From assembly GCF_021869535.1 (NCBI RefSeq), contig NW_026262745.1:59210001-59274000 (forward strand): DNA of 64,000 bases. The letters are read 5' to 3'. The notes under the pieces are model-generated. The model worked only from the letters and a program-made list of their open reading frames with translations, ran no database searches and was not told the DNA's origin. Within the stretch, counting starts at the first letter, position 1. Each line of letters begins with the position of its first letter. This DNA is from Mytilus californianus. Taxonomy: Eukaryota. Positions 14,840 through 46,225 of the stretch are shown in pieces. Position numbers and translations under genes: made by a program.

Positions 14840-14846
14840 ATCTACG

Positions 14847-15272
14847 CTAAAATACGCTTGGTATAAATTGTAGTGTAAAAGACAAATTATTTTTCAAAAA
14901 TGAAGCGTTTTCTCCGTGTTCATCTTTTATAAGAAATTCTAAGACTTGAATTTCGTTTTTCTTTACCGGTAAATAAATTGGAGACGAAAATAAATAATTC
15001 CATGTATTCATATCCGTGGGAAATATTCTTCGTAAAAGTGAATATTGTATATGGGGAAAAACATTCACTCCACTACATACATCACAAAACAAGTATAATT
15101 GATGATTGTTCTTTTTTGTAACTTTTTGATTAGAGTAAAAATCTAATATTCCTAGTTTCCATTCACCTTGTAATTGTAAAACTTCATTTAAACACACTTT
15201 GAACTTGAACGGTGAATTATTAGGGTAATATGCATCAGATTGATCACTTCGAATGAAAATTATATGTTCCAT
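14847..15272 (-). CDS. Minor capsid (penton-like single jelly-roll) protein, 141 aa
   Basis: S..YYPNNSPFKFKV.L...L.L.GEWKLGI and LYLFCDV..LLRRIF..Y.PV..EFLIKDEHG..F..FTLQF motifs of Polinton minor capsid. Confidence 0.85.
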   Translation of the reverse strand: MEHIIFIRSDQSDAYYPNNSPFKFKVCLNEVLQLQGEWKLGILDFYSNQKVTKKNNHQLYLFCDVCSGVNVFPHIQYSLLRRIFPTDMNTWNYLFSSPIYLPVKKNEIQVLEFLIKDEHGENASFLKNNLSFTLQFIPSVF

Positions 15273-16408: not shown

Positions 16409-16864
16409 ACTTAACTCAATTTGAACTGAATGTATATCTCGCAAATTAGTTTTAAGTAAAGTTTCACATATGAATCGGATTAGAGGTAAAAAAGATGGGG
16501 GGGGGGGGGGGGGGGGGGGTGGAAAAAAACAAAAAAAAAGTGTTTCAATAACTGAAATTAGTTTGTGTTTTGATTTAAGATATAAAAAAAGTTAAGAAAA
16601 AAAAAAAAACTTTTCATTAAGGAATGTAAATATTTGCATCTTTTTCATTTCTATTCGATTCTTATATAAATCTCTACCTAAAAACAATACCACTACATCA
16701 ATAAATAAGAAATACAAAAAAAAAAATATGTTTACATAATTTATTATAAAATCTATCACAAAAATAATGATGATGTCCTTTAAATATTGTCTGTCATTCA
16801 ATTCCATCTTTTATTCATTTCATTCCATCTTTTAATCATTCCGATCCATCTTTTATTCGAATGC

Positions 16865-19800: not shown

Positions 19801-20180
19801 AATAGAAATTTGAACTATAATACATTTATCAATCTTTTATATCAGTTACTTAATTATATTTTTCATTATTTTATTCAGAAAAGAAAACCTTTACGTAGGA
19901 GCAACAGACGTCGTGTTGCTCCAAATAGATTAATGTATAATCAGTTTTGAGTTTTGAAATATTATAGTGTACACACTCAATTCTAGTTTCATGGATAAAT
20001 TTTTACTTTCCTACTATTTCAAAAGTTATTAAAGTATTCATTGGAATTAAACCAAAAACAAAAATCTATTCTTTTTAAACTGTGAAAAAAACTTACCTTA
20101 ATATCTTGAACCAATGACGACAGCTGTAACAGACATTTCTCAATCATAACTATTTTGATGAGGTTCTTATTTGAATTCAT
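16865..20180 (-). CDS. Predicted 5-exon 82-aa protein antisense to the membrane gene; exons 20180-20097, 18720-18688, 17985-17923, 17710-17663, 16885-16865
   Basis: All four donors GTAAGT, all acceptors CAG after pyrimidine tracts, all exons multiples of 3 (84, 33, 63, 48, 21 nt), no internal stop, AATAAA just after the TAA. Confidence 0.72.
17007..19950 (+). CDS. Predicted 6-exon type I membrane protein (~256 aa) inside the Maverick; exons 17007-17312, 18761-18830, 19068-19124, 19380-19625, 19694-19713, 19879-19950
   Basis: All introns GT-AG with pyrimidine tracts; phases 0,1,1,1,0 give a continuous ORF: signal peptide, 4-Cys ectodomain, S/T/acidic stalk, TM IYVILLGVLSFVCIFIIFVFMILY followed by RK. 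Last two exons less certain (alternative stop at 19633). Confidence 0.78.
17525..17632 (-). pseudogene. Degenerate paralogue of the 25528-25836 ORF
   Basis: MYTLIREREITGK vs MYTLLRERELTGK (11/13 identical); after a frame change MRNKVYKLRYED vs IRNRVDKLHHEE. Confidence 0.65.
18137..18640. repeat. 263-bp tandem duplication (~1.9 copies), intronic for both spliced genes
   Basis: ACTTATAATGAGTTAAATCTATACATACACAGTAAGG at 18137 and 18400. Confidence 0.9.
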
Positions 20181-20659
20181 TTTTTTCTTCTTTTTTTTTC
20201 TTTTACAGTTTGCAACTTATTAACATATGATTATCAAACAAGTGTTAAGGTGTATTTATTAGTACTTCACATCCTGGATTAAGTGAATGGGAGGGGTATA
20301 AGGAATTATCTATACAAAGGGTGGAATAATGGAGATGTTTTTTTTTTTAATCCTCATTTTTTTTCATATATCAATTATCTAATCTCTTTGTATTTGAAAG
20401 AAACAATACAAGTTGTTATTTGTAGGTGGGGTCTGATTTTATTTACTCAATCTTTCATTTGCTGTTGTGAAAAAACACCTCATAGTTTATTATGATAAAA
20501 GATTAAATTATTGTTTGAAAGAAAGGTGATTGATTGATTAGAAATACCCCCTCCCTCATTTGTTTACACTTTTAGTCAATTAATTTTTGAGAATTAAATT
20601 GTCTGAAGACTATTAACTTGGAAAGTTTTTCATACATCTATATAATTAACAAGTTTGTT

Positions 20660-21125
20660 GTATAGTGCTATAAAAAAAAAAAGATATATAATATCACTAA
20701 TTCAATGATAATGAACTCCTCACCCCTTTATTAAAACATAAGGTTGTCTCCCTTTAAGGTTGTGTGCTTTTTTCTATTTAATCTTGAAATAGTAATATGT
20801 TACTCAGGGAAAACAAGTTTTTTTATATAGTTATGTAATATACATGTTGTTTTTTTTTTCTTTTCTGTATAGTGTTATAAACAAGATATATGATATCTAT
20901 ATTGCAATGATAATTAACTACTCAATCATTTTATTAACACATAAAGTTGTCTCCCTTTAAGGTTGTGTGCTTTTTTCTATTTAAACTTGCAATAGTAATA
21001 TGTTACTCAGGGAAAACATTTTTTTATATAGTTATGTAATATACATGTTTTTTTTTTCTTTCTTTTTTGTATAGTGCTATAAAAGAAAGATATATGATGT
21101 CAATAATGTATCAATAATTAACTTC
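20660..21125. repeat. ~200-bp tandem duplication (~2.3 copies) in the Maverick AT-rich spacer
   Basis: GTTGTCTCCCTTTAAGGTTGTGTGCTTTTTTCTATTTAA at ~20744 and ~20946. Confidence 0.88.
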
Positions 21126-21975
21126 TCAAACTGATAAATTTTTTTTTTGTGTGTGTGTGCGTCTAATTTACTGTTTTAAAACTAAATTATAAATGTGTGT
21201 AAAAAAAAAAAAAATGATAGAGTTTATCTTCTTTTTTACTTTTTATAATACACAATGTTGGAAAGATATATCTTGTTTGTATATGTAAAGTTATGTAAAT
21301 ATGTTACACCCAACCAGTAAAGTTTATGTTTATTGATAGTGTTGCATTTTAAAAATGTTCTTATGTGATATGTTATTACAATCATGGTGCACTTTAAAAA
21401 CATATTTGTCTTTAAAGAATTTTTTTGTATATATGTTACTTTTAATATAAAAACATTGTTATATGCTATGTAAAACCCAAAATAATAGTACTAATGTATT
21501 TTTAAAAATTAAAAAATATTTAATTGATGAAATTTATTATAATTTAGACTGGAAAAAATAAAACTTTTATTTTCACTTTGCAAATTCATAAAGTATACCA
21601 CCATACAGTATTTTTTATATTAATAAAATAAGTTGATAACAATTATACTTTTGTTTATCTCATTGTTTTTGTTAGTAGTTAATCTTCACTGCAGAGAAAC
21701 ACATACTTTCAGGATATTGTGAGCTCTTAATTGGTGGTGATTTCAATGTTATAAAATTTTTACTTTTCCTTTATTTGCTATTGCTAAGAATTAGTCTATG
21801 CTTTAAGGAAGTTGTCTGGAAAAGGGATTTCATTGATTGACATCATCACATCATTAAACAAACAAAAAATAACCATCTTAGTCTGATAGTTAAAATGAAT
21901 AATCAACACAAACCATTATTCTATATTTATTAGCATACAATAAAAAAAAAAAAAAAAAAAACATTAGAAAGGATA

Positions 21976-22578
21976 TTACAATTTGAATCTTTTCCATTTA
22001 AGTTTAGGTTTGTCATCAAGCAGTCTTGAAAGTTCTCTTTTTACACAAAGTTTATTGTTATTTGTCTGTTTTTTCTTTTTTCTAACGTGTTCACTTTCAG
22101 CTAATAGTTCATTTTTCAGTGTTGTAGTTGTATCCGATTGAAACAGTTGTCTTCTCATTCTATTTGAAATAAATCCCATAGGTATGTGGATCGTTTTAAG
22201 AAAATTATAAAAATGTATATATCCATTAGGTGGATGTTTGCATCCATATGGAATGACAACATCCCGCAATAAGTCAACAATATGAGTGTTTGGTATAGTT
22301 TCGTTGTTAATATGAATTTCTCCTCGTTTGTTCCAACTAATTAATGGTTGAGTCTGAAGAAAGTTCAATAGTTGTTTCCCCTTCTCTCTATATTTCACTG
22401 GTATGGTCAGCTCGATTAAAGTGTTCAATTCATGGTCAGAATTTTCATTTTTGGTTATTAATTCCTCCTTTGGTGAAAATTCTTCCTTAGAACAAGTTTG
22501 TTTGCTGCTTTCATTGTTTTCTGTTTGTACTATACTTTCATATCTATGTTTTGGAAGAAGAATCATTTCTCTTGTCAT
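21976..22578 (-). CDS. Maverick-associated hypothetical protein (~200 aa)
   Basis: Intact ORF with ISWNKRGEI..NETIPNTHIVDLL motif that I recall from Maverick ORFs; first ATG at 22578; overlaps the upstream ORF. Confidence 0.75.
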   Translation of the reverse strand: MTREMILLPKHRYESIVQTENNESSKQTCSKEEFSPKEELITKNENSDHELNTLIELTIPVKYREKGKQLLNFLQTQPLISWNKRGEIHINNETIPNTHIVDLLRDVVIPYGCKHPPNGYIHFYNFLKTIHIPMGFISNRMRRQLFQSDTTTTLKNELLAESEHVRKKKKQTNNNKLCVKRELSRLLDDKPKLKWKRFKL

Positions 22579-22888
22579 TTTTAATTGTTTCAAGTATTGG
22601 TTTTACAATAATAGGAATAATGTTATGATATTTCAGAAACAATTTTTTTCTCTGAATACGTGATGTCTCTCTGTGTGTTATTTTCCGAATGATACTTTTA
22701 TATTTCATAAGTTTCTTTTTAACTGATCGGCTAAGATGAAATACCCCCCATAACACATTTAAAAAACACTCAACTAAAAGTTGAAATTGTTTGTCGTTCA
22801 TAGTCTTCAACAATGCAATTTTCTGTTCTTCGTCATATGTAATTAAAAGCGATAAAAAATGTACATGGGCTAAAACTTGTTTACTCAT
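22544..22888 (-). CDS. Short helical basic Maverick protein (114 aa; possibly the PM-type core ORF)
   Basis: LVECFLNVLWGVFHLS..KKKL.KYK.IIRKI motif; ATGA overlap with the ATPase stop. The PM label is tentative. Confidence 0.7.
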   Translation of the reverse strand: MSKQVLAHVHFLSLLITYDEEQKIALLKTMNDKQFQLLVECFLNVLWGVFHLSRSVKKKLMKYKSIIRKITHRETSRIQRKKLFLKYHNIIPIIVKPILETIKNDKRNDSSSKT

Positions 22889-23550
22889 TTTGGAACAAAA
22901 ATTACTGGATCTTCTCCTTTGAAAATTTTTGTTCTCAATAAATATGTTTTATCTGTATGCGTTGACAAATCGATAATCAAATAACCAAACCTACTACAAA
23001 CTGCCTTTTCATAAGCTGACATGAAATAGTTTAATTGACCTGGGAGAATCTGTCTTCCTAAAACTGATAACTGGTGTTTGTCACGTTGGTTTTTTAGACA
23101 TATTATGTATGTTGCGTTTAACGAAATAGTACGTATGCATTTTCCAGGAGGGAAAAGATTTTGCATAAGAAACAAAACTGTTATATTACAATGATGAGAT
23201 TTGACGGTAAAAAGATTTAATACATCACTAGAGTTTGAAGCTTGACATAATAAATCATCAAGACAAAGAATCATATGTTCTTTATTTTCTGACCATTTAT
23301 CAATTTCCTCACTGGATGGTAAACCTTCGTGAAAAGTTATGTTTCTAACTTTTTTTTCCATCTCTGAAAACAAATTCTGATATGCAGAGTAACAATAAAT
23401 GGTTTTCTTTGGTGTTTTGGTAAATAGGTATTCAGATTGAGCCAGGATTTTATATGTAAGCATGGTTTTTCCTGACTGAGTAGGTCCAACTATTTGTATA
23501 CAACACGGTGATTGAAACGGCAAAAGCACTTTCTCCGTGTCTTCACACAT
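22885..23550 (-). CDS. FtsK/HerA (A32-like) genome-packaging ATPase, 221 aa
   Basis: Walker A GPTQSGKT, Walker B ILCLDD, FTVKSHH.NITV.FLMQNLF, RTISLNATY, YLIIDL. Confidence 0.95.
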   Translation of the reverse strand: MCEDTEKVLLPFQSPCCIQIVGPTQSGKTMLTYKILAQSEYLFTKTPKKTIYCYSAYQNLFSEMEKKVRNITFHEGLPSSEEIDKWSENKEHMILCLDDLLCQASNSSDVLNLFTVKSHHCNITVLFLMQNLFPPGKCIRTISLNATYIICLKNQRDKHQLSVLGRQILPGQLNYFMSAYEKAVCSRFGYLIIDLSTHTDKTYLLRTKIFKGEDPVIFVPK

Positions 23551-23852
23551 TTTTGTTTGTTTGTTGTCTAAACCTTAATTGACTTATGGATTGTGATTTA
23601 TTTTTCAAGGTATTTGTTTGTTTTATATACTGTTATTTCTAACTTGTTTTAGTTTTTTTTATTTGAGAAAGAAAATACACCACCAGAAAGAAAAAAAAAG
23701 AATCAAAATACATCACCAGAAAAAAAAGAATCAAAATACTACAACTGAAAAAAAAAAAGAACCAAGTACACAATAAAGTGCAACAAATGAAGTAAAATAC
23801 GGATGCAACCTAATGATTCCGGAATAAAAAGGCGGATATTAACGAACGATTC

Positions 23853-23935
23853 CGGAAATGATCGGAAATGACTTTACATTCGGAAATAAACGAATGTTTC
23901 CGACTACTACCGGAAATAAATATACATACGGAAAT
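23853..23935. promoter_or_regulatory. Cluster of five CGGAAAT motifs upstream of the ATPase gene block
   Basis: CGGAAAT at 23853, 23863, 23881, 23911, 23929 in otherwise CpG-poor DNA; the regulatory role is inferred. Confidence 0.5.
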
Positions 23936-24107
23936 AAACGAATGATTACGAATACAATCGAAATGATATAAACGAACATGAAGTCATTTCTAATCTTTAC
24001 CAGAAATATAATTTTTTCATTAAAAAATAAATACACAACGAAAAAATTTCATATCAGTATACTAATTTATTCAATGAAATATACATGTATTTATATATAA
24101 TACAATC

Positions 24108-24512
24108 TTATTGTGTGAAACGTTCTTCAAGTTTTACTTTCCTTTCCATTAAATTATAAACAGTCTCTTTCATTTTTTGTGATCGAAGTGTATCAAGGAA
24201 CAACACATGAAGAATGAAAAAGTTTAAAACGACACTATTTTCCAAGTTCAATGTTCTCACATTTTCTCTGTACTTTCCTAGTATGTGACTGTATTTAAAT
24301 TCACAATACGCCTGTTCAAAATGTTTTTCAAGTTTATCCAGTTCACTATCCATCAAACAATCGTGTCTATGTTGTGATCCATGTTCAACTTTGCATCCCT
24401 GGCAAAACTTCTTTGATAATTGTTGCACCATTTCTTCTAATAATTCAGCAAAAGAAAACAATAATATAGTTGAAAGTAGCCTTTTTCCCATACCGTCTTT
24501 AATGTCCACCAT
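24108..24512 (-). CDS. Accessory protein with CxxC..HxSQxxHxC putative zinc-binding motif, 134 aa
   Basis: FCQGCKVEHGSQHRHDCL; intact ORF 7 nt downstream of the previous stop. Confidence 0.75.
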   Translation of the reverse strand: MVDIKDGMGKRLLSTILLFSFAELLEEMVQQLSKKFCQGCKVEHGSQHRHDCLMDSELDKLEKHFEQAYCEFKYSHILGKYRENVRTLNLENSVVLNFFILHVLFLDTLRSQKMKETVYNLMERKVKLEERFTQ

Positions 24513-24519
24513 TATATTA

Positions 24520-24780
24520 TCAGTGTTCGTCTATAAATGAATAAAGAAATAAGATGCTTTCCTTTAGATTACACAGTTTTGTCCAATTTTCTTTACTGAT
24601 CAGAATCTTTTTCCCTTTTATAACAAGCTGTAATCGGGTATGTTTTCCTCTTTTCTTCACCACCACTTTTATCGTTTCATCAATTAAACATTCAATCTGT
24701 TTCTTGAATAAATCAGTATGCAAATGTTCAAAGTCACAACCGTACACCTCCTTAGATAAATCAACCTGTGCCTGTGCCAT
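24520..24780 (-). CDS. Small accessory protein, 86 aa (weakly PC4-like)
   Basis: Intact ORF; KKILISKENWTKLCNLKESI resembles the PC4 C-terminal strand-helix pattern; similarity is weak. Confidence 0.55.
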   Translation of the reverse strand: MAQAQVDLSKEVYGCDFEHLHTDLFKKQIECLIDETIKVVVKKRGKHTRLQLVIKGKKILISKENWTKLCNLKESILFLYSFIDEH

Positions 24781-24943
24781 TGATATAATTGTGTACTTTT
24801 ATAGTTGTGGTCGCGGATTAAATTGTTCATAATGATTCATAAAAAGATTAACGAAACGTATAGTAAACGTTTCAGTCACGTGAGGGGGAGGAGGGTCACT
24901 AAAACACTCCTTTTTTCCTCCTTTCTTTTAATATGAATATCAT

Positions 24944-25174
24944 TTATATTTTATTTATAGAGGGGTTTGGTAAAATGTAACCAGTACAACCACTTAACAA
25001 ACTAACCCATAGTTCTATACTTCCATTTTGTGTTGACAAATTAACAACTGCTGCAATAACAATTATGAAAACTATTATCATCTGACAAAAATACACGATC
25101 TCTGCTTTTGGTACATTCTGCCCGAAAAAACACCACTTTGTTTGAGGGTTTTCTGTGCTCATTCTCTCTAACAT
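24944..25174 (-). CDS. Small two-TM membrane protein, 76 aa
   Basis: Hydrophobic segments IVYFCQMIIVFIIVIAAVVNL and LWVSLLSGCTGYILPNP. Confidence 0.75.
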   Translation of the reverse strand: MLERMSTENPQTKWCFFGQNVPKAEIVYFCQMIIVFIIVIAAVVNLSTQNGSIELWVSLLSGCTGYILPNPSINKI

Positions 25175-25527
25175 TTCAACTTAAATGATTTTTTTTTTTC
25201 ATATACACAAAAATATATATCTATATTTTATAGGAGAATTTCATTAAGAAGGTGTAATTTCCAATTTTCAATATGAAAACTTTTGTTATCATAATGCTGT
25301 TTTAGTTGAAATAATGTGTGTTTATCAATCGAAAGTAATAAAATATATAATCTAGTTTTCTTTTCTTCGAAAATAAACGAGTTGTGAACCTTTTGTAAAT
25401 ATTTCATAATCGTTGGAGAAGAAAATCGAACTGATCATGTACAACAATAAAATACTCTTTTTGAATGATTTGTTGGTCCTAAAAAGGACCGTTGTACGCA
25501 TGTAAATGATATACATGGATTTTTTTT

Positions 25528-25836
25528 TTATTGGTAGTTGACAGGATCCATAAACTTGTAGTCTGCTAACACTGCATCAAAGTAACAACCACAAAAATAA
25601 AGATCTTCAATAAACTCTGGGTGGTGTTCAAAGTTGTATAGAATACAAACAATGTAACCGTTTTTTAGAAGCCATGTTTCTACTGGACACCGAGATAGTT
25701 CTTCATGATGAAGTTTATCAACCCTGTTCCTTATCAAATTTGCAGTCTTTTTTGGACCTCTTCGCGATCGTCTGATCTTTCCTGTCAATTCTCTTTCTCT
25801 TAAAAGTGTATACATATTAAAATTTTGGAGATTCAT
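25528..25836 (-). CDS. Hypothetical protein, 102 aa, first ORF inside the right TIR
   Basis: ATG-initiated intact ORF with TATA-like sequence at ~25873-25879 upstream; has an internal paralogue at 17525-17632. Confidence 0.7.
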   Translation of the reverse strand: MNLQNFNMYTLLRERELTGKIRRSRRGPKKTANLIRNRVDKLHHEELSRCPVETWLLKNGYIVCILYNFEHHPEFIEDLYFCGCYFDAVLADYKFMDPVNYQ

Positions 25837-25915
25837 ATTGTTTGTTCTTATGGAAATACTGTTGATGTATGATATATAGTAAACGTTTTTCTTAGTTTAT
25901 AAACTGATTGCATTC

Positions 25916-26427
25916 AGATTATACTTCAGGATGTAAACGTGGATAGGTCAACGTGTATACCACGTTTACAAGATCATACGTAGGAGGGTAGGGGGATTAA
26001 AAACACTTCCGTTAATTTTCCACCACCGGATTTTAACCAGGATGTTAAGTAGCAGTTAAGAGGATTACAAGATTAATCTACTTCAGTTAAGAGGATTATA
26101 ACCAGGATGTTAAGTACAAGTTAAGAGGATTACAAGATTAATCTACTTCAGTTAAGAGGATTATAACCAGGATGTTAAGTACAAGTTAAGAAGATTAAGA
26201 GATTAATCCACTTCAGTTAAGAGGATTATAACCAGGATGTTAAGTAGCAGTTAAGAGGATTAAGAGATTAATCCACTTCAGTTAAGAGGATTATAACCCG
26301 GATGTTAAGTAGCAGTTAAGAGGATTAAGAGATTATAGACCGGATACTACGTCATAGTTAAGAGGATTAGCTGTGACGTGGCTTCCTGTGGGGGAATTGT
26401 GGGGGACTGACCCCATTTCATACTACT
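25916..26427 (-). repeat. Right terminal inverted repeat, 512 bp
   Basis: Reverse complement of 7968-8479. Confidence 0.97.
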
Positions 26428-29140: not shown

Positions 29141-31077
29141 TTAAAAAGTGTAATTGTCTTCTTCGTCAAACTGCATTAGCAAATCAACAATGTTTTCTTT
29201 TCCGCACATCTCTGCTAGATCTACTGCAGTATTTGTGATATTAACGTCGTCTGGAATAAAAATATCCCAAGTTCTTACATTATAAGATAGGAGACACTTT
29301 ACTATATCACAATGCCCTTGTCCAATTGCTACATAAAGAGGCGATTCAAAATTTCTGTCCTGTAAATTCACATCAGCCCCATATTTAATTAAAATATCTG
29401 CAATATTTGTATAACCAAAATGACATGCTGCTGTTAGCGGCGTTTGCTTTCTATGAAAGTTTTCATCAACAAATTCATCTTCTTTATACAGTGGAGATGA
29501 ATTTACGCTCTCTTCATCTATGTATTGCAACATCAATTCAACGATATCGGCATTCCCACTGTAACAACCTAATTTGAGCATTCTCGACCTTTCTTCTAAA
29601 TTTGTTCCAAACACTAAATCAGAAGATTCATCTTGACTTTGTACATGTTCAACAATTTCAAGCAAAAGATGCATATGTCCATAGTAAACAATCCAGCTTA
29701 TAGTGCTGTGAATATGACAACAATGCTTCCATTTATCACCGTAAAATATATGCTTATCCATCAATAGTTCTTGTCTGGTAAGTTCATCATATATAAGGTC
29801 ATCATCCTTTTCTTGGTTTTCGTCTTCTCTCGTTACATTTTTCATAACATACCGAGGGTCAAAAGGAGAACGGAAAAGTATTCGTAGTTTAAATTCACAG
29901 TATGGTATCTGCTTGAAAAAATTGATAAAGACGTATAAAAATTGAATATTGTTCAAAGAAGTGTTCCTAAAAACGTCAAATAGGTGCATATCTTTGATGT
30001 CACTATACATTCTATCTGCCAGTAATGGAAAATAAATTTTCGAGAGTTTAATTTTGAGGTTGTCGAACGTCGATTCCCCACAAACAATAAGTTTATTTGC
30101 CACAAAATGACTTGGCATGTATTTCAAGATATGTGTCACATGGTCCGTACCAAAATGGAAAGCGACAATTTCATATATTGAGTCATGGATAAACGTGAAT
30201 TCGTTGTTAACTTCAGAAACAAATGTCCCTGTTATCTGTTTTAATGCGTCGATAATTTGCCTATCAGATGTACTTCTGTTTAAACCACAACAGTTATATA
30301 TATCTTCTTTAACATTATTATCTGGAAGACTTTGTAGGGAAATTTTGTTTTCATTCACAAGGCATAGAACCATTGCAGTATACTGTGTAGGATTGGTCCC
30401 TTGAAGTATCTCCATTTGGTTTATAAGACATTCAAATGGTTTATTGAAAAATCTGGAGCCAAATTTATGACAAGTTTTGTCTTTTGCAAACAACTTACAA
30501 ACAAATGGAAACATTATTTCTGCAGAGTTGAATGACAGCGTATTATAAACACTGCTGTCAATTCCGGCTTTGTTGCAATGTTGTGCTAGCATTTTCATTT
30601 TCTCTTCCTCGGATAAGTCAAAATCTCCCCCATGTAAATCAACAATATTTTTGGTGATGAATGAGTCAAACTTTAAAGCTTCCTTGTAAACTGTTTTTCT
30701 GCAAGTGAATATAAGTTTCGACTGGTTTCCTAGTAATTTTAGTAATCTTTCTTGATGCCTTATGATGTTGTTCAACATCGTTATATCTACAGCGAAAATA
30801 CCCAATATATCATCAAGAATGAAAACTTGATTTATAGAGGATTTGCCATATAAAAGGACCTCCTCTGGTCCGCAGACTGGAACAATTTCTGCACCTGCTT
30901 TTCCCAACTGCAAAGCAATATGGCGAGCTGTTGCTGTTTTGCCAGAGCCTGGACCTCCTATGAAGGTTAAGTATTTCTTGTTTTCCATCATGTTCAGTGC
31001 TGCATCATAAACACGTGTTCCCTCATAAAACACAATGTCTTCCTGTTTCCAGTCCTTTAGAACATCAACTTGACAAT
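29141..31077 (-). CDS. Last exon of the HEPN-STAND-ankyrin gene: STAND (nSTAND3-like) NTPase plus ankyrin repeats
   Basis: Acceptor TTTCAG| at 31078; Walker A GGPGSGKT, Walker B VFILDD; ankyrin units TPLTAACHFG..GADVN, SPLYVAIGQG, TAVDLAEMCG; open to the TAA at 29141. Confidence 0.92.
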
Positions 31078-31639
31078 CTGAAATACAAATCAAAATTCTT
31101 GTTGGTTTTTTTTAATCTCAAAATTAGTATTAACTTTATTTACTATCACAGGAGCGGCATCGATGTTGATTGCCTCATTATGTACACTCGCTGTCACACA
31201 TTTGGAAGGCATTATATTTGAAATATTCTAGGCATTAAAATAAGTAATGTCCAGTAATGATTTCGCTGAGATCTGTTAAATCAATTTTATGCAGTATGTA
31301 ACTCGTTTTTTTTTTCAAATTATATTTAACGATATAACCATTTTTTACAAATCATATGTAGTTATTATTATTTCAAAATATGTTGCCAATGAAATAGTGT
31401 CACGATTTTTTAGTCAAAGAGAAACCAGCTACAAAAATGTGCTTAGAACACTATAGACTAGACAACACAATCTCAATTGAAACACAAGGAAAGCAAACTT
31501 GTTCTGGTAGTGTAAGAAGATCCTGCTCCTAATGGGGTCCTGTTGTTGAGGATAATTACAATTTTCATATTAAGTCTCATTCGTTCATATCACAATTGAG
31601 GAAAATAAGACAGGGTTGTGGCCACGATAATTCTTACAT

Positions 31640-31830
31640 ATCCATGATCATCTGTGGCACAGACATCAATAACGGTCAATCAACTCATGATGGCATCCGT
31701 AAAATTTTCGAAAGAAGACAGTTAATTAAGCTCTGAAATATCTCGTCAACTAGAAGACAAATACTCCACATGTTGGCGCTGCTGAATGTTGGTACATAGA
31801 AAAGAAGAGTTCCAATCTGGAAGCGGAAAC
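31640..31830 (-). mobile_element. Penelope-like retroelement fragment
   Basis: Minus strand ..RKFYGCHHELIDRY.. homologous to the 36870 copy. Confidence 0.55.
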
Positions 31831-32499
31831 AATCTCTTTTGACGAAATTTAATTGTTTTCAAAAAAACTGTCATTGTAAATTTCTATGTGTTAGTTCTAT
31901 GAAATTTAACTTAATTGTAACTGTGGTATCAAAAATATTACTAAAAATAACAAACTCTAAGGTCAATTCAAAAAGGAAGTCCATAAATCCTGACAAAATC
32001 AAACGCTGGGCTATATGTATGTCAACGACTGTCGTATTCCTGCACGGGCATATTCCAAAGAAAATATTGGGTTTTATCTGTTTTTAAAGCTAGCCAAACC
32101 TCCCAATTGTATGAAATTGTCTTTATATTATCAAAATGTATGTGACCAACCAAAATAGACATAATTGCTTAAAGTGACCATAATTCGAATGTAGCAACCA
32201 CAATCAACATAGTCATTTTACTCTGAATCATTTAGGGAACTTTAACTTTTAGTATATAGCTTGTAGCTATAGGACAATGCTAGATTTCTTTCGTTCCTAC
32301 TTATAAGCTCTTGTATGGACAGATGAAGTCTTACTCATATGAAAAAAGACATGTGTCGACAAGAAGAGGAGCATAGTTTATCCCAATAGTAATGCCAATG
32401 AGAAACACCGCCAAATTTTTTTCTTGCGGTGTATAGTGGTTTCGTAAGATGTCGCTTATATATTTTGCATATGATATCGAACAGTTATTGCGCTTTTAA

Positions 32500-33079
32500 A
32501 GGAGTAGGTCCAGTAAGACCCTTTTTTGGCCCCAAAATATAGCAGTTTTACAAAATTGTTAAAATGTAAACTTTTAGCTGTTTATTTGAAAGTAGAATAC
32601 TTATGTTACATAAATATGGGCTGTTTTTGACAATACAATGCACATATATCGGGCACTAGCATCAATAAGTCATGCTAAATTAATGAAATCTTCACAATTC
32701 AAGCATCTGAGTTAAATTTAAGACAGTTTCCGTCTTAAATGGAAGTGGCCGCATTCGTGTTCATTCTTAATATTTAAATGTAAGTTGTATTTTATGATAA
32801 TACATAACATATATGAAGGTTGAGAGTGAATACGGATGCGGCCACTTTCATTTTTGACAAAAACCATCTGAAAAGTGACCTATTATGGCATATTTGACAG
32901 ATTTTTCATATTTAAGCTTGAATTTGAGCGTCTTTAATGACTGAATCAGTTCAAATCTTTCACATAAACTAAATGAATCGACTCAAGTAGACACTTAAGT
33001 GTTTAAAAAGTGTCCAAAATTTTTCATCAAATGAACCTGAAATTTGAGGCCAAAATCGGTCCTTACCGGACCTACTCCT
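32500..33079. mobile_element. 580-bp non-autonomous DNA transposon (Kolobok-like) with TIRs and an internal hairpin
   Basis: AGGAGTAGGTCCAGTAAG...CTTACCGGACCTACTCCT, flanked by TTAA / TTTA; internal inverted pair AAGTGGCCGCAT...ATGCGGCCACTT. Superfamily tentative. Confidence 0.75.
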
Positions 33080-34195
33080 TTTACCCTGCTTAGTCGAAAA
33101 CTTTTTATTGTAAAAGTTATCTTCCAAAACACTGTTTTTGTTGTTCGTGCATCTCCTCCGTAACCGTAAAAGAAATCGACAAATTTATTTTACCAAATTG
33201 CTCGTTATATTCTCAGGATGTTTTGTCCAATTTTGACCGAAGTGACACGAAGACTCCATTTGACTTATTTCCCCTTCTGTATTTGACATAAGTTAACTAT
33301 TAATGTATAACATGAATGGTAAGTGATAGAGACCTACGGTATTTTGGTTTGAGGTCCTTGGTTCACTAAAATGAAATTGAGGTCAAGGTCATATTCTAAA
33401 TTTTCACTTTTCCTTGTTTTATGATCTCCTCTGTCACTTTTAAAAATATATATAAAAGAACTAGCGCAAAATGTTTGCCTCATTGTGATGAAAATATGAT
33501 ACATTTGGTCTGAAACAATCCAATGACATCTTATAGGAGTTATTGTCCCTGAAATGGTTAAATTTAAGGTTAATTGAGTATTACTCCAACTTGGTACATG
33601 ATAAAGCCATAGGGTCTTTTGCAAAATGTTGGATGACATATGACCTTAAAAAATATCAACCGGGAGTGACTTTGAGTAGAACGGAAGTTGCCATTTTTGC
33701 ACTTATTTCATTGAAAAGTACATAGAAACTGCATATTTTTAAATAGGCATACATAAACATATCATTTGAGACAGGAAGTGACCTTCAATAAACCGGAAAT
33801 AGCTAAAAATCTCCCTTATTACAGGCAAAAGTATATTAACACCATATATATTTTTGGAATCAGTATGAATAAAGCTATCATATGAGACTGGAAGTGGCAT
33901 TTTTTAAACCGGAAGTAGCAAATTATCTCCCTTATTTCAGGCAAAAATGTATAGAACCCATATATTTATTGAATCTGTATGAAGTAACCAATACTTGGAC
34001 GCCAATAGTAACTTTGAGTGGACAATAAGTGGCTTCTCATCAATCATTTAGAAAATTGATGTGAAAAGACCTTCGATTGTTCTCTGAACAATCGGGTTTT
34101 AATTATATAATTATATTGCTTGCGATATTTCTATGATTTTATTCTAAAAAAATACATATATGAGAAAACATTAAAGTTAAGATAATTTCATCAAG

Positions 34196-34407
34196 TACTG
34201 TGGATTCATTATTATTTGTTGGATACCAATTTTCATTGATTTCGTGGATACAAGGAAACCACGAATTTAAATGTTCAACGAATTGCAAATTTGCTGTATG
34301 ATTATATGCAGACTTTTGGAAAACCATGAAATCAAATATCCACGAAAATGCATGTTTTCATAAATCCACGAAAATTGGTACCCACGAAAATAAATGAATC
34401 CACAGTA
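34196..34407. mobile_element. ~210-bp MITE with TA-flanked TIRs
   Basis: TACTGTGGATTCATT...AATGAATCCACAGTA; ~40-bp imperfect TIR. Confidence 0.85.
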
Positions 34408-34415
34408 TGCAATAC

Positions 34416-34674
34416 TTCTAACATGGTCCGGGATGTGTCTTCTTTCCATTTGTTCAATATCTTTTCTTTGCGACGACAATATGTCTGCAACTTCATATAT
34501 TGTATCTTGAATGCTAATGTGCTCATCCTGCAGCACACAAACCTGACCTTTGATGTCCAACATTTCGTTTTGCAAGGCACCAAGTATTTCACTCCCTTGT
34601 TGTTGATCGACCTGTTTTGTTTTCAGCGAAGAAACGTCTTTTTCTAAAGTACCTTTACTTAGTCTTGTTATAGC
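34416..34674 (-). CDS. Exon of the HEPN-STAND-ankyrin gene (end of HEPN plus coiled coil)
   Basis: TTTTAG|GCT acceptor; AITRLSKG..QNEMLDIKGQV..RHIPDHVR; phase 0 to 1; GT donor at 34415. Confidence 0.88.
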
Positions 34675-34942
34675 CTAAAATACAGTAAGAATCACATTAA
34701 CCTATTATGAAAATATGCCAAATTGCAGAAAACTGTTTTAAGTATCTAATGTAGCTTCATGAATACATTTTAATGATTCAATATCAATGTTGTTAAAGAA
34801 ACAGAAATAACAAAAAAAAATTTTGGTTAGAGACGAATGAAATATTATAAATGTAAGCTTGACATAACATTATTTGCTTTTGTTGTAGAAGAACATGCAA
34901 ACCATATAACATGCAATTTAATGAAATCTAAATATATGTAAC

Positions 34943-35172
34943 CTGAGATAGTTCATTCCAAGTACTTTGGAATTCTATATCAGAGAACTGACAGTTTTTA
35001 TGGTGAGCCAAGCTATTGCGTAGATGTCTAATTCTCACTATATCGTCTCCTTCAGATATATCTCCAGATGACGGGGAATTTTTCCAACCATTTGTCGGTA
35101 CAATATTTGCAACTGTATTTCTTATTAGTAAATGCAGGAGAGTAAAATCAAAGTCTTTAGAGTTTGCCATAC
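34943..35172 (-). CDS. Exon of the HEPN-STAND-ankyrin gene (DZIP3/hRUL138-like HEPN core with Rx4H)
   Basis: SKDFDFTLLHLLIRN..GW..P..GDDIVRIRHLRNSLAH; phase 1 to 0; canonical splice sites. Confidence 0.9.
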
Positions 35173-36399
35173 CTGTAACTAAAGCAATATAATTCTGTGA
35201 AAATAATTAACACCGCCACGGTGTTTAAAATGTCACCACTAGTTAAACCAATTTCGAACTGAAATTGTCTTTTGATTTAAATGGTTCTGATGAGACTGAA
35301 CCATAAGTGATGATTGACTTATAGAACTGTTAAAATAGCTACCTTGCAGTAAATTAAGACCAGTTCAGTCAGTGCTCAGTAGTAGTTATTAAACTGTACA
35401 AAAACAACATACTGAATTTTTTGATTAGCTACTTAACAGTACTAGTATTGGATTAACTAACAAGTCTTTACGTTTTTAGGTTCAGTCTTTTCAGATGATG
35501 TTAAGATCAAAATGGCCGGTAACAATGTGAGAGACTTTGCTTCGTGTTGAAGGCTTTAGTATGACTTATATGATAAATATTGATATGAATAACAGCAATA
35601 AAAGAGTTGTTTCCATCTTTCGGATTTTTTTTCGTATTGCGGAGTGATACTGTCGCGTGAATTGATACGTAATTTTCTCCTTTTTCATTATACTAGCTAA
35701 GTATTTCTTCCGTGCTGTATGGAGGCCACAAAAGGTATTCCTGTGCTAGAGATGTATTTCATTATATATTAAAATAGTTATGGCGTATTCATAACTTTGA
35801 TAAATGTTCTTATTCTACTTTATTTTATCCCCTTTATTCAGTTTATTGTGTAATCCGCAATCAAATGTATGACAGTATTTGTTAATCATATTTGCCTCAT
35901 AAGATATAAATCAGTGTTTATATTATTTCACAGCAGTGTTTTAGTTGCACAAGTGTAGTGGTATCTAGGAAAGATTTACGTTCCGTGCAAGGAGTTGTCT
36001 AGAACTTGCAGGGGGATGAGATTTGTTGTCCATGCAGAAAGCTCAACTGTGACTTTTAGACATGTTCTCGTGTCGGTCCTTAGTCAGTGCTGGTTGTTTG
36101 TTGTCCTCTTTATGTAGTTCTGTTATTGTTTGTTTGTTTGTTTGTTGTGTATTTACTTTAAACAAATTTTGACAACAAAATTTGATGCCATCGATGTATT
36201 TACTTTTCTTACCCTCCCGTATTGCAGTCAAAATGATAATACATTACGAAACGTAAAGAAAAACAGTCTAAAATTTAAACTAACCGTCCTGGCTTAAGTA
36301 TAATGTTTTTGTTAGCGGAAAATTGATTATTTCCTTTTAGCATCATTATAATATAGGCTTATATAAGCAACAATGCGCTACACTTTTTAAAATTGATAC

Positions 36400-36612
36400 C
36401 TTGATAAAGTAATGACATTTGAGGATTTGTACAAATCCCAGCGTGAAATAAGTTACGTATTGTTTGTTTGTGGTTTTTCAAATGGTTTGCTAGCATTCCA
36501 TCTGGAACATGATGTCTGAAGACAGAACGAACGGCTTCAGTACCAATCTGATGACAAAGCAAAGTAATGCGAAGAAAACTACTTTCTTCTCGTGATATAA
36601 ATTTTTCGTCTC
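36400..36612 (-). CDS. Upstream exon of the HEPN-STAND-ankyrin gene (HEPN N-terminal part); start-codon exon not located
   Basis: TTTCAG| acceptor; DEKFISREESSFLRITLLCHQIGTEAVRSVF..MSLLYQ; |GTATC donor; 213 nt, phase 1 to 1. Confidence 0.85.
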
Positions 36613-37949: not shown

Positions 37950-39620
37950 ATGGTACAAAGTAAAATCACAAAAAATACTGAGCTCCGAGGAAAATTCAAA
38001 AAGGAAAGTCCCTAATCAAATGGCAAAATCAAAAGCTCAAACACATCAAACGAATGGATAACAACTGTCATATTCCTGACTTGGTACAGGCATTTTCTTA
38101 TGTAGAAAATGGTGGATTGAACCTGGTTTTATAGCTAGCCAAACCTCTTACTTGTATGACAGTCGCATCAAATTCCATTATATTGACAACCATGCGTGAA
38201 CAAAACAAACAGACACAATAGGTAAAAATGTCAAAAATAGGGGTACAGCAGTCAACATTATGTTATCATCTTAATCACTATAAAAACAAACAAATGTAAC
38301 GAAGAAGCACAAAAAGGAATACATCAAATTTAACATCCTCATTTTGCCTTTAATAATCGTATAATCTATTAACAGTAAAAGTAATATTAATAAAGACAAA
38401 TAAAAGAATACTATAACACGTTATTAAGATGATAAACAACGTCAGTACGCAGAATCTATACTTCAAGACCATCGTGTATTATTTGTGAAGTTGATACGGA
38501 ATATTTATCAACAAGGTCTTGGTACCTTCTGATGAACCTTTTTTAGAAAAAGGACGATTCGTTCTTTGACATACCCCTGGTTCATCAACTTTCTGCTCAG
38601 ACACTGGTACATTATATTCTGAAACGGCTACTTAAAGACTTCAAATATGAAGTTTGATAAAATTTGTTCGTCCAAATGGAGCCCCTGATGAATTCCATTT
38701 TTAGTGTTGTCTTAAGAAAATGAAAGATTACAACAATATGTATGGGGGATATGTAAAAAAAGTAAAATAACAAAATTACCAAACTCCAAGGAAAATTCAA
38801 AACGGAAAGTCCCCTATCAAATAGCAAAATCAAAAGCACAAACACATCAAACGAATGGAAAACAACTGTCTTATTCCTGACTTGGTACAGGCACTACAAA
38901 TTGTAAAGGAAAATATTTTGTAACCATCTTTTTTTCACTGTGTAAATGAATTAAAATTTTAAAAAAACCTCGGTGTTTAACATTACGACATACTTTTTTG
39001 ACAAACCAAAGGTCAATAAAGGCGATACCTGCACCTTAATTGGGTATATTATCAAGATTTGCTTTACATTATTTAGATCAATTTTGTTGGTGTGATGTGG
39101 ATTGGTTTTGTTTAATTTTGTTTACCTTTTTTTTCCCTTTCTCATCTACCTTTTTCAGTAGTAAAATAATTATATACGATGTAGTGGATTCGGAAACGAT
39201 AATGTTCGACCGACGTTTGAAGAGGCCAAAACAATGGTTTGAATTAAGGAGAAGGATCATTTAACCCATTTTGGCCAAAGAAATTGAAGTGTTTGAAAAA
39301 CTGCGACAAACAAGATGCATATACGTTTCTCAGGGAAATTTCAAAACGGAAAGTCCCTTATCAAATTGCAAAATCAAAAGCTCAAACACATCAAACGAAT
39401 GGAAAAACTGTTAAATTCCTTTTCTTATTATATGAAGGAAATAGTGGATTAAACCCGGTTTTCTAGCTAAACTTCTCACATGTATGACAGTCGCATAGAA
39501 TTCCATTATATTGACAATAATGTGTAAGCAAAATAAACAGACCTAGTAGGTAACACTGTAAAAAAATTGGGGTACAGCAGTCAAAATATAATCTTAATCA
39601 CTATAAAACAAACAACTATG
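37950..39620 (+). repeat. Three copies of an abundant interspersed repeat
   Basis: GGAAARTTCAAAACGGAAAGTCCCT..CAAAATCAAAAGCTCAAACACATCAAACGAATGGA at ~37988, ~38790, ~39333; related copies at ~31960 and inverted at ~43270 and ~50290. Confidence 0.8.
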
Positions 39621-41389
39621 TCAAAAATGAACAAAAAAATGGCATATAGACACTATATACACAAAGCACAAAAGCGAAAAAGAAAGACAAGAATACAAAC
39701 AATGACCATAAGAATGACAAGTTACTGTTTTGTACTTTAAGAGTGTACAGATTATACTAACTTGTTAATTCACCAATAAATTTAAATAAACCAATGAAAT
39801 ACGTTTAGTTTTACACGGCTTTAATAAATTCGCATGGACTATATTTGGAATTTCAGGAACTAATTGATCATACATTTTCCTTTTCTCATTACATAGGCAA
39901 ACATAAAATTTCAAATATACTAGAATTGAATATAGTTATTAAGAAAAGATTTACAATGACATTAATAACGTGACAAGATATTTTAATTCAAAATATGCGC
40001 ATATTTCACGAAAACAAAGAAAATATCCATTACAGTTTTCCATACATAGCATGGGCAAATATTGGTCAAATTTTTTTTATGTCTATTTACATATTGTCAC
40101 CAATTATGAAATTGTTATTGTGATGTGCCTGTACTTTTCTCGTTTAATGTAAATCAAGCAGCGCATACAATTTCAGGAAAATAGAATAACAAAAAATCAA
40201 ATATAGGATTGTAATTTCGTTGTTGTTTGTTTGCATGGATAATCATCGAATATATAATTTGATTCTAATTTCTGAAAATCGTTATCCTTAGATAACGTTT
40301 GGGTAAATATAAGATCAACCTTTAAATTGGCACAAAATTGTAGACCAAACATTACACTTATTGTCCTTACTTCTGCACATGTGATATAAACTCATCATAT
40401 ATAACAGGCCTAAAATTGCTTACGCCAGACACACGTTTCGTCTTCAAATATTCATCAATGACACTTGAATCAAAAACAATTAAAAGGTCAAAGTACAAAG
40501 TTTCATTGGTGAACAATGATAAATGGTTTCGAACTACATTATGACAACTTACTGAGATTATTATTGTTCGTGCTAACCCTTGTCCAAATCCAGATTATTA
40601 AAAGTATTCCAATGACCAGTGAAAAAATAACTTCCAGCAGAAACATTGATGATTCTTCCATAATCTATATGAAAAATATAAGGAAATTGAAAAGGTTATG
40701 AAAATTAATACAGGTGCACATATCATTGTATGTTTAAACAATGAGTAAGCAATTACTTCTCATTGTCACTTGAAAAAAAGTAATTCACAATGCATTTACT
40801 ATAAGCATTTATTCAACAGATTAAAACCTTTCTTTGGCTATTCAATTCTTTTTTTTTTTAAGTTTAAAAGACGCATTCATACGGTTCATCAGTATTTGCT
40901 GAATTTTATGTAACCTAAATCAGAAGAAAAATCAATCAGATTATAATGTTATACAATTCATTTATAAATATAAATAAATTGATTTATAACTGATCGTGCG
41001 TATACGCTTGCAATGTCCTTTTTGACTGCGAATGGGGATAAATAAGAAGATATCAGATCGCTAAAAAAGTTCAAGTAAAATGGAGACCCCGTCAGAAATT
41101 GTAGTACGTCCATAGTATGAAACACCAGAACTTTCTTATGACGTCGTATATATTTCTCACATTGCGGTGTTAGCATAACGTTTTATGATTATCTCTTTAC
41201 GTTAACGTTTTCATGTTAACTTTTTTATTATTTTGAATTTAATTTCTGCATTTGTAGTTTTACGTTGATTTGTCTTACGTGGTATGGCCTTAACGTTCTT
41301 TATTTCTATCCTAATTTTCATGATTGTTTTTCACGTCTTAACTTTCTGTTCTTTTATGTATATATTATGTTGATTTGTCTTTACGTTAT

Positions 41390-42550
41390 GCGGCTACGGC
41401 GGCGGTGGCGGCGTTAGCTAACTTCTTAAAAGCTTTATATTTTAGAAGCTAGAAGACCTGGATTTTTCATACTTTGTTTATAGATGCCTTATGTTACGAA
41501 GTTTCCGTCTGTCATATGTCCATTGTTCTTGACCTCATTTTCATGGTTCAGTGACTACTTGAAAAAAAAGTCAACATTTTTTGTAATGTTAATTTCTTTC
41601 TTATTATGAGTAATAGGATAACTATATTTAGTATGGGCGTACCTTGCAAGGTCCTCATGCCCGTCAGACAATTTTCATTTGACCTCGACCTCATTTCATG
41701 GATCAGTGAACAAGGTTAAGTTTTCGTGGTCAAGTCCATGTATCAGATACTATAGGCAGTAGGTCTACTATAATTGGTGTATGGAATGATTGTAAGGTGT
41801 ACATGTCCAACTGGTAGGTGTCATCTGACCTTGATCTCATTTTCATGGTTTAGTGGTCAAAGTTAAGTTTTTGAGTTTTGGTTTTTTTTTCTAATACTAT
41901 ATGCAATAGGTCAACTACATTTGGTGTATGAACATATTTTGTGATGTACATGTCACTCTTACTGGTATTATTTGACCTTGACCTCATTTTCACGGTTCAT
42001 TTCTCAGTGTTAAGTTTTTGTGTTTTGGTCTGTTTTTCTTCAACTATAAGCAATAGATCAACTTTATTTGTTGTGTGGAAGGATTTTAAGGTGTATATGT
42101 CTGTCTGGCAGGTATCATCTGACCTTGACCTCATTTTCATGGTTCATTGGTCAATGTTAAGTTTTCATGGTTAAGTTTGTTTCTTATATACTATAAGCAA
42201 TAGGTCAACTATATTTAATGCATAAATTGATTGTAATGTGTACATGTCTGTCTGGCATGGTTCATCTGACCATGACCTCATTTTCATGGTTCATTGGTCA
42301 ATGTTAAGTTTTCTTGGTTAAGACTGTTTCTTAGAAACTATAAGCAATAGGTCAACTATGTTTTGTTTATTGAATGATTGTAAGGTGTACATGTATTTCT
42401 CGTTTGGTTTATCTGACCTTGACCTCATTTTCTTGGATCATGTTAAGTTTATGGGTTACTTGTAGTAAAGCTTTATATTTAGGACTATCAACATAAAATC
42501 AATGGTTAGTAAGTAAAGAAGGCGAGACATTTCAGCGTGTGGACTCTTGT
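41390..42550 (+). mobile_element. Helentron/HINE-like element with ~147-bp internal tandem core repeats (~6 units)
   Basis: (GGC)n-like microsatellite at the head; TGACCTTGACCTCATTTTCATGG recurs at ~147-bp spacing (41678-42420); tail GGCGAGACATTTCAGCGTGTGGACTCTTGTT. Confidence 0.75.
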
Positions 42551-44784
42551 TTCTTTATGTTATTCAGTTTTGTCCTCATGTTAATTAGTTTTTTCTTTAC
42601 GTTCGGTAGTTTAACATTTACGTTTATTAGTATTTTACAATTACGCTATTTAGTTTTGTCTTTACGTACTGTAGTTTTGTCTTGAAGTTCGGTAATTTTG
42701 TCTTAATGTTATGTTATTTGTCTTACGTTTTGTGATCCGGTCTTCACCTTTTGTAGTTTTATATTCAATTTTTGTAGTTTTGTCTTCACGTTATGTTGTT
42801 TTCTATTTACCTTATGCTTCATGTTAGGTAGTTTTGTCTAAACGTTCTGTGTTTTTATTTTAGTTGTGTTGTTTTGTCTTTACCTTATGTGGTTTTGTTT
42901 AACTTGTGTTTAAATTAACATGTGTTATGAACATGCAACTTTTTCTGCAACAAAACTTAATTTGTTCAGTCAGTTGTAGTGTACTGTAATCTACATATGC
43001 ATGTACACATTCAAATTGACATTTTGTTTTGGAAATTTGAATAAAAATGAATTTATGTCAACCAGACAGCAACAAAAGACAAAAGAATCAAAATACATTT
43101 AGATGGCAAATACAGTATTCAACAACAGACATTTGTCTTTACAATATATCAATTTTAAATTAAATATATCTCAAAAATAATTTGCAGCCTTTATATTTAA
43201 AGAAGCAGTCAATTCCATATAAGCGGGAGGTTTGGCTAGCCACAAAACCAGGTTCAATCCACCATTTTTCTTAAAAGGTCCTGTACCAAGTCAGGAATAT
43301 GGCAGTTGTTATCAAGTAGTCCGTTTCTATGTATGTTGGCGTTTGTTTTTGTAGCTGTTCAGTGTTTTTGTTGTTCCGTTGTTTATCTCTTATAGTTGAT
43401 GTGTTTTCCTTTGTTTTGGTTTGTAACCCGGATTTGTTTTCGATTAATTGATTTATGACTATTGAACAGCGGTATACAACTGTTGCCTTTATACATCTTG
43501 AAAAAGACACACGGAGGTTGTCGGTGAATGTTTAGCACTAGTATGACATATATCACAGCGTATTACTTTGTAAAAATTGTACAAAAATATTAATTTTTTA
43601 AACCATACCCCTACGAAATTATAGAAATCAGAACAAAAAGAAATATGGCTAAACGAAATCAGACAGTATCCAAAACACAAAATAATCATCTAAATGTAAA
43701 CATAGCTTCTATGCTTTTGTAAAATCACATGTCTTTTAATTCATATTGTCAGAATTGTATATGCAAATGGATGTGTGTTGATAACAACCCAATTGCGACG
43801 GCCTGAACAAAATCAAGTTTGAACGAATCTTGAATTAAAAGGTGCGTTGATTAACCCTGTAAATATATTCTGGAAAAACTTGTATGTACATGCAAATGCA
43901 TAATTTCATATCACGTAATTTCGAACAATTTCAAGAGCGCTGGACGTAATCATGATACTATATAACAAAATGAAAAAAACGTGTGATGAAACGACAAAAT
44001 GTAAAGATGACATTACTAGAAGTTATATTTATTGATTGATTGATTGATTGATTGGTGTTAAACGCCACTTTCAACACCATTGTGCTATTTCATGTTGGTC
44101 AGTTTTTATTGGTGGAGGAAGCCGGAGTGCCAGGAGATGTTAGAACAAAACACATAACGTAAAGACAAGACTTTACAACGTTAAGGTGGCAACAAATAAA
44201 GTAAATGTACAACTACATGAGGTTAAGTATGTACGAAGTCATTAGACAATCATTGCTTGTCATAAGATATCTTTATATTTCTTCTTCGTTCAGAGAAATG
44301 GCAGATCTTTTATTGTTTCTGTTAAATTTATTCACTGTTTTTAGAGAACCGGAGCGACTTCAGAGTGTGACGTATTGTTTAAAACCTGTCTGTTATTAAA
44401 AACTGCATATTGCCCTCTAGATTTTGTTCGGTTATTTTGGTTGTTTGATCGGCGTCACAATCGAATAAATTTTAGCCTTCAATAACCATTTTGATTTTAA
44501 CATTATTCGACAAATATGAATGTACAAACTTTCGGTATTGCTAATATTTTCAATTATTTTCTACACATTTCCTTGTTGTAAATTCAGTACTGTTTATACT
44601 TTTGGCTTGCAGCCAATCCAGTACTGTTCGATTATGGTCTTTTTTTACAATTCAGTTTGTTTTGATCTGGTTAAAACAACTACTACACAGCATGATCATA
44701 GAACATGCAAATAGATCTTAATTGACTGCAAAAGAATTTGTCTGAATTGTCTTGAGTTTAGTAACGTGAATACGTCTGAAAATT

Positions 44785-45557: not shown

Positions 45558-46225
45558 TAACATCAATCTCATTAACAAGATCTTCTTACAGTTGAATTGA
45601 GAAATGGCTCTGGGAGTAATTTAATACAAATATAACATCAATCTCATTAACAAGATCTCCTTACAGTTGAATTGAGAAATGGCTCTGGGAGTAATTTAAC
45701 ACAAATGTAACATCAATCTCATTAAGAAGATATCCTTACCGTTGAATTGAGAAATGGCTCTGGGAGTAATTCAACACAAATGTATCATCAATCTCGTTAA
45801 CAAATTCTCCTTACAGTTGAATTGAGAAATGGCTCTGGGAGTAATTTAACACAAATGTAACACCAATCTCATTAACAAGATCTCCTTACAGTTGAATTGA
45901 GAATTGGCTCTGGGAGTAACTTAACACAAATGTAACATCAATCTCATTAAGAAGATATCCTTATAGTTGAATTGAGAAATGGCTCTGGGAGTAATTTAAC
46001 ACAAATGTAACATCAATCTCATTAAAAAAATCTCCTTACAGTTGAATTGAGAAATGGCTCTGGGAGTAATTTAACACAAATGTAACACCAATCTCATTAA
46101 GAAGATATTCTTATAGTTGAATTGAGAAATGGCTCTGGAGTAATTCAACACAAATTTAACATCAATCTCATTAACAAGATATCCTTATAGTTGAATTGAG
46201 AAATGGCTCTGGGCGTGATTTAACA
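45558..46225. repeat. 75-bp minisatellite, ~9 copies
   Basis: CAYCAATCTC anchor at 45561, 45636, 45711, 45786, 45861, 45936, 46011, 46086, 46160; no unique spacers. Confidence 0.97.

Follow-up and report, generated by a model that had tools for sequence, protein, structure and literature searches.

A HEPN-nSTAND3-ankyrin gene of Mytilus californianus from an expanded bivalve family, with an unproven splice between its predicted RNase and sensor halves

The minus strand of a 64,000-nt window of the Mytilus californianus genome (G000:C165:59,210,001-59,274,000; the whole stretch of DNA analyzed, within which positions are given below) holds LOC127716457, a genuine gene from a bivalve family that is known and expanded; its exons encode a HEPN domain, a coiled coil, an nSTAND3 NTPase and ankyrin repeats. 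That these modules form a single sensor-RNase product is unproven at the key junction, between exons B and C. We consider the evidence evenly balanced on whether this transcribed gene yields, at low abundance, a full-length NLR-like receptor with all four modules. The gene likely works as an intracellular immune sensor.

Gene model, domains and predicted fold

Four minus-strand exons, all with AG/GT ends, join into one open frame of 880 codons plus a stop, which bears out the four phase-compatible exons and at least 879 amino acids proposed in a first-pass annotation made from the sequence alone. Exon A (36612-36400, 213 nt) encodes N-terminal HEPN helices and is 33-43% identical to exon A of paralogs; exon B (35178-34943, 236 nt) carries the HEPN core; exon C (34674-34416, 259 nt) adds the last HEPN helix and the coiled coil; and exon D (31077-29141, 1937 nt) encodes the nSTAND3 NTPase, a helical region, the ankyrin repeats and the stop. 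Intron B-C (34942-34675, 268 nt) is in phase 0, its donor reading CAG before the cut and GTTACA after it, and read-through leads to a stop 4 codons past exon B. Exon D is 100% identical to RefSeq XP_052078633.1 (LOC127716457, Mytilus californianus, 694 aa); this RefSeq protein corresponds to model residues 187-880, without HEPN, and begins at Met187 in exon C (34563). Since the first 2 nt of exon A complete a split codon, the model still lacks a start exon farther upstream; an in-frame Met39 is present in exon A. Well over 100 GT/AG exon combinations are open at the locus, so that phase compatibility is weak proof, and the junctions were fixed by RNA contigs and paralogs. The assembly contains the exon B region only once, and RNA contigs over it therefore belong to the LOC127716457 locus.

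Pfam profiles for DZIP3-like HEPN and nSTAND3, suggested earlier as a check, both scored above their curated cut-offs: HEPN_DZIP3 (PF18738) matched exon B at 78.5 bits (cut-off 27, E 5.7e-22) and nSTAND3 (PF20720) matched exon D at 91.3 bits (cut-off 27.2, E 6.7e-26), while Ank_2 matched three stretches of exon D at 86.3 bits (E 2.1e-24). The Rx4H motif claimed for the HEPN domain was found as RNSLAH, with Asn after Arg, at 35020-35003 (model residues 124-129; R124/H129), and the complete Walker motifs claimed for the NTPase were located in exon D as GGPGSGKT (Walker A; 30958-30935, model residue 276) and VFILDD (Walker B; 30826-30809, model residue 320). Further motifs in this exon are IFTCR (model residue 358) and FIHDSIYE (model residue 531). 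The count of about four ankyrin repeats was a fair one: by eye, three canonical repeats start at 781, 814 and 852 and two degenerate ones at 697 and 736. NACHT (PF05729) had no match in the gene at E≤0.01 and reached 12-15 bits in paralogs, against a cut-off of 26.7.

An AlphaFold model of the 694-aa protein (P0001; pLDDT 84.8) shows exon C as a long N-terminal helix (residues 2-41) and an ankyrin-like solenoid across residues ~398-690. Because ankyrin proteins filled the fold searches of this model, the STAND region was folded alone (pLDDT 89.3). It matched MalT (8bob; Z 13.6, rmsd 5.6, 290 aligned), NRC2, NLRP3 and NLRP9 (Z 13.3), NOD2 (13.1) and SAMD9 (12.0), with 267-314 residues covered, as well as Avs5 (Z 11.0-11.1); AAA+ proteins appeared among the matches from Z 12.5 downward, in most cases aligned over fewer residues. 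Judged by this predicted fold, exon D holds a STAND module of nucleotide-binding, helical and winged-helix domains. Sequence searches of the PDB returned only weak AAA matches for STAND and nothing useful for exon B, and an attempted HEPN homodimer model of a stand-in relative (two copies of P0101 residues 8-185, alignment not used) scored 0.04 against a mark of 0.32.

Proposed splicing between the HEPN and STAND exons

Contigs from four runs (X1-X4; three individuals, one study, depth 2-7) were used to examine the junctions. These runs are only presumed to be RNA; the spliced joints show that transcripts are included, and each contig is an assembly, not one molecule. Junction C-D was joined in contigs of X1, X2 and X4, and junction A-B in one contig of X3, whose joint links donor 36400 with acceptor 35178 and includes one substitution. 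Intron A-B is covered by contigs as well, and the libraries therefore contain unspliced RNA. At intron B-C, a contig of X4 (34426-34745) crosses acceptor 34674 unspliced and one of X2 (34812-34975) crosses donor 34943 unspliced. In raw-read run X8, of which ~6% was read, depth was zero over most of exon D, where silence and absence are indistinguishable. Almost none of the sequence words sought occurred in runs X9-X17, a result that bears neither on expression nor on absence of the gene.

The B-C joint is made in relatives, namely in RefSeq models P0068, P0069 and P0072 and in the contig-derived P0101 and P0087; our model aligns co-linearly with P0068, from M. galloprovincialis, for 871 residues (43% identity). 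Exons A-D recur in five close paralogs, all of which have intron B-C at the same position and in phase 0. Their introns open with GTATTC, GTTTAC, GTATTC, GTAGGT and GTTTTC, non-consensus in four of the five, and read-through meets a stop within 2-25 codons. On a crude, approximate donor matrix, all three donors of LOC127716457 are weak, and since the weakest, that of exon C, is used, the B donor is not singled out. A broken donor as the cause of B-C read-through was rejected on these grounds, the paralogs sharing weak donors. Identity to four paralogs is 49-51% for exon B and 40-52% for STAND, and HEPN, being conserved as much as STAND, has long been under constraint. We infer that a splice links HEPN to the sensor in this copy. 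P0068, P0069 and P0072 begin with a hydrophobic 19-mer (mean hydropathy 2.1-2.3), and by analogy with these nearest paralogs the gene would have a start exon encoding a membrane anchor.

Several observations weigh against a full-length receptor. The B-C junction was joined in none of the four contig runs and read through in three; among these, an X1 contig (34417-34789) is spliced at C-D yet extends 115 nt into intron B-C. A contig of X3 carries a 2-nt insertion in exon B, and one of X4 lacks 35106-35271, with no splice ends and with loss of the exon B acceptor (single contigs, both at depth <5), so that contigs from two of the three individuals have lesions in the HEPN exon. Either lesion could reflect an error or mark a null allele; null alleles of this copy probably segregate. 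RefSeq drops HEPN at LOC127716457 and joins it in the paralogs LOC127724932 and LOC127711240. The missing first exon that had been predicted did not come to light: tblastn and phmmer searches with paralog N-termini and donor scans over 36.6-64 kb of the window gave no credible candidate. P0069 and P0066 have longer ankyrin arrays, a close exon D relative in another Mytilus species was absent from the 65 matches (the best at 47%, over most of the query), and our literature search found no RNase assay for this HEPN family. The gene had been called intact, which holds for its open frame and for the A-B and C-D joints; with B-C, the junction that matters among those whose joining had been set beforehand as the test, not seen joined, lesions in the HEPN exon and no start exon, the word describes a genomic potential, not a shown transcript.

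Those points that concern the HEPN half also speak for a somewhat less probable alternative, in which transcripts normally keep intron B-C and give mainly a coiled coil-STAND-ankyrin protein starting at Met187, while the uncoupled HEPN exons are turning pseudogenic. The RefSeq start at Met187 despite the in-frame Met39 is consistent with such decay, as is the state of the closest HEPN-bearing paralogs, three of five of which are broken (two with stops, one with its STAND exon split over two frames). The reference allele, however, is free of lesions and has RNSLAH in place, exon B matches STAND in conservation and is still spliced to exon A, and the read-through comes from a single study at a contig depth of only 2-5, with coverage of other intron sequence too. 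Intron B-C might instead be a regulated switch, its retention separating RNase from sensor and its splicing on infection arming the receptor. The conserved position and phase of the intron, the non-consensus donors of four of the five paralogs and the nearby stops would suit such a switch, and relatives ending just past HEPN are on record (P0085, P0089 and P0092), but weak donors are general in this gene and a 268-nt intron retained in nascent RNA accounts for the contigs equally well, and we think this reading improbable. We regard as a similarly long shot the wider proposal that bivalves possess expanded, membrane-tethered nSTAND3 (Avs5-type) RNase receptors armed by removal of a short post-HEPN intron on infection.

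Family expansion and nearest known systems

LOC127716457 is one of a large family and no singleton. Exon B has 147 matches in the M. californianus genome (150 of 339 candidates scored) and STAND has 150 (150 of 444 scored). For 54 of these 147 HEPN matches, a STAND match lies ≤30 kb downstream on the same strand, which sets a lower bound on such loci; seven have one upstream and none on the opposite strand. Exon B also matched 837 representatives at E≤0.001; STAND and ankyrin are present in 7 of the 42 top matches of ≥600 aa, and 130 of 148 aligned HEPN relatives retain R-N-x3-H. A search for longer proteins through exon B alone gave none from five candidates, 78 pattern matches in metagenome contigs gave no confirmed relative, and four more STAND-exon paralogs, examined over 20 kb apiece, yielded no HEPN exon.

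Annotation already includes full HEPN-nSTAND3-ankyrin proteins from M. galloprovincialis, M. californianus and C. gigas, and the effector-STAND-repeat layout proposed in the first-pass annotation recurs at full length in P0066, P0068, P0069, P0070 and P0072. The Mytilus and oyster proteins XP_076076455.1, LOC127724932, LOC127711240 and XP_034322393.1 have the same domain order as our gene, whose exon layout also recurs in the Mytilus paralogs retrieved; this copy differs from the annotated proteins in its shorter ankyrin array, the lack of an identified first exon and its HEPN-less annotation. A quick tree built from 76 STAND rows places the gene, on a long branch, as sister to a tandem cluster (SH-aLRT 94) at G000:C46:24,278,000-24,323,000 (L031-L036). 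That cluster comprises three HEPN-coiled coil-nSTAND3-ankyrin genes, LOC127724932 being intact and the other two interrupted by stops; a short hydrophobic first exon is present in two of the three. Birth-and-death evolution seems to shape the family.

Other relatives vary in form. P0070 and P0072 have an N-terminal extension of ~130-140 aa ahead of HEPN. In P0072 it includes a hydrophobic anchor; in P0070 it shows a weak Ig-like match that falls below cut-off, and the P0070 model ends in a second HEPN, perhaps from a fused neighbor. The exon C equivalent occurs twice, ~1.1 kb apart, in one paralog (L043; G000:C24:21,253,436-21,254,762). P0073, a 51-aa Logan fragment, is 82% identical to exon B, keeps RNSLAH and ends at the position of a Trp in our gene; it is possibly an ortholog with an early stop, or else the contig simply ends there.

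If the full-length receptor is made, its ankyrin region would keep the ATPase closed until a ligand binds, whereupon STAND would oligomerize, draw the coiled-coil-tethered HEPN domains together and so allow the paired HEPN domains to cut RNA. HEPN active sites arise by dimerization (PMC10942766), Rx4-6H is catalytic in those HEPNs tested (PMC3710099), and other STAND receptors offer an analogy for the proposed steps (PMC13581612; PMC12931631). By this analogy the gene product may sense a ligand, oligomerize, act as an RNase and serve an antiviral role, a reasonable mechanism and the same as that already hypothesized in print for such proteins.

Fusion of HEPN to NACHT or ankyrin, and the idea of an antiviral RNase, have been published for bivalves and cnidarians (PMC3710099; PMC9646362; PMC8260672). 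DZIP3-like HEPN domains, expanded in oyster, are fused to ankyrin, NACHT, TPR and LRR modules, and RNA degradation linked to NACHT was proposed for them (PMC3710099 Table 1; Anantharaman et al., 2013). The pearl oyster P. fucata has >50 HEPN-NACHT genes, with Rx4-6H in 194 of 202, proposed to act on viral and transposon RNA (PMC9646362); anthozoans have 17-83 HEPN-NACHT proteins (PMC8260672); and oyster expansions combine TM, STAND, HEPN and ankyrin (PMC8195603). Our gene matches the DZIP3/hRUL138-like HEPN profile (PF18738) above cut-off and has its Rx4H with Asn after Arg, but the NTPase in the fusions of PMC3710099 is NACHT and in this gene nSTAND3, a domain that the accessible text of that paper does not name. 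With the HEPN-NACHT proteins of pearl oyster and cnidarians it shares an N-terminal DZIP3-like HEPN, a STAND NTPase and C-terminal repeats, and those families are likewise large, vary between haplotypes and are proposed RNases (PMC9646362; PMC8260672). They combine NACHT with LRR, TPR or WD40, whereas here nSTAND3 is paired with ankyrins and a coiled-coil linker, and the nearest paralogs of the gene bear a hydrophobic anchor at the N-terminus and in some cases a possible Ig-like domain. Our literature search of main texts did not find the nSTAND3-ankyrin version of HEPN receptors (supplements may list it), which is plain in database annotations, and the portions of the nSTAND3 literature available to us describe no animal HEPN fusion.

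nSTAND3 has been assigned to bacterial Avs5 (bioRxiv 2025.07.08.663546), which shares with our gene the nSTAND3 (PF20720) core and the effector-STAND-repeat layout (PMC12931631); an Avs5 structure (9jap) was the sole non-ankyrin STAND-type chain among the Foldseek matches listed for the 694-aa model. In Avs5, a Sir2 NADase effector and TPR/Sel1/PPR sensors take the place of HEPN and ankyrin, PADLOC gave no Avs model match for the gene, and the STAND model fits NLRs as well as or better than Avs5 (Z 13.3 vs. 11.0). In human SAMD9, another animal protein of STAND type, a latent N-terminal RNase is activated by virus; the abstract of PMC10246899 does not report this nuclease as HEPN. RNase L resembles this gene in having ankyrin repeats and a HEPN/KEN nuclease (PMC3710099; PMC10942766) and has a kinase domain where this gene has STAND.

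Invertebrate HEPN-STAND receptors, in bivalves and corals, are among the largest immune gene families that are biochemically uncharacterized. Were one of them to cut RNA on sensing a ligand, molluscs would gain a one-protein equivalent of SAMD9, RNase L and bacterial Avs, and such proof would bear on disease resistance in farmed shellfish. The present copy is a poor first subject for such a test next to LOC127724932, whose annotated frame is full and which possesses both a start exon and a longer sensor.

The adjacent Maverick and other features of the window

A Maverick/Polinton element occupies 7968-26427, with perfect terminal inverted repeats, AGTAGT ends and a 6-bp target duplication (TATATT). 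Its arms are 517 nt long, 100% complementary and built with 65-bp tandem units, and its contents include an rve-chromo integrase (Pfam) and a double-jelly-roll-like open reading frame. The separation of 2.7 kb noted earlier is real, the element ending 2,713 bp from the stop codon of LOC127716457.

This distance is all that speaks for the gene being a dedicated defense against the Maverick, or a partner of it, as had been hinted. The integrase has ~19 genome matches at 82-99% identity, its own included, and these are scattered. Proximity was assessed for 71 integrase loci, comprising the top 81 of 150 matches after merging of 10 near-duplicates, with the lower 69 excluded; only one, that of the window itself, has a HEPN or STAND match no farther than 30 kb away, against 0.61 expected, and with limits from 30 to 100 kb it is still the only one, against 0.6-1.7 expected. 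Maverick proteins had no match in the 200 kb around paralogs or in loci L001-L030. The element is also young, with identical arms and an intact duplication, whereas the paralogs of the gene are only 40-50% identical. A functional link is thus highly implausible, and a recent insertion by chance best explains the adjacency.

Highly covered interspersed repeats lie within intron C-D and upstream of the gene (34196-34408, 32436-33669, 37989-39222 and 41074-43541). A broken cGAS-like receptor gene (Mab-21 and TPR; 46174-48017, minus strand) lies some 10 kb upstream in the same orientation, with a Mab-21_C match at E 8e-10 and weak TPR and nucleotidyltransferase matches over several frames. On the plus strand, a lipocalin-like exon at 52581-53033 has a weak Pfam match (E 0.13).

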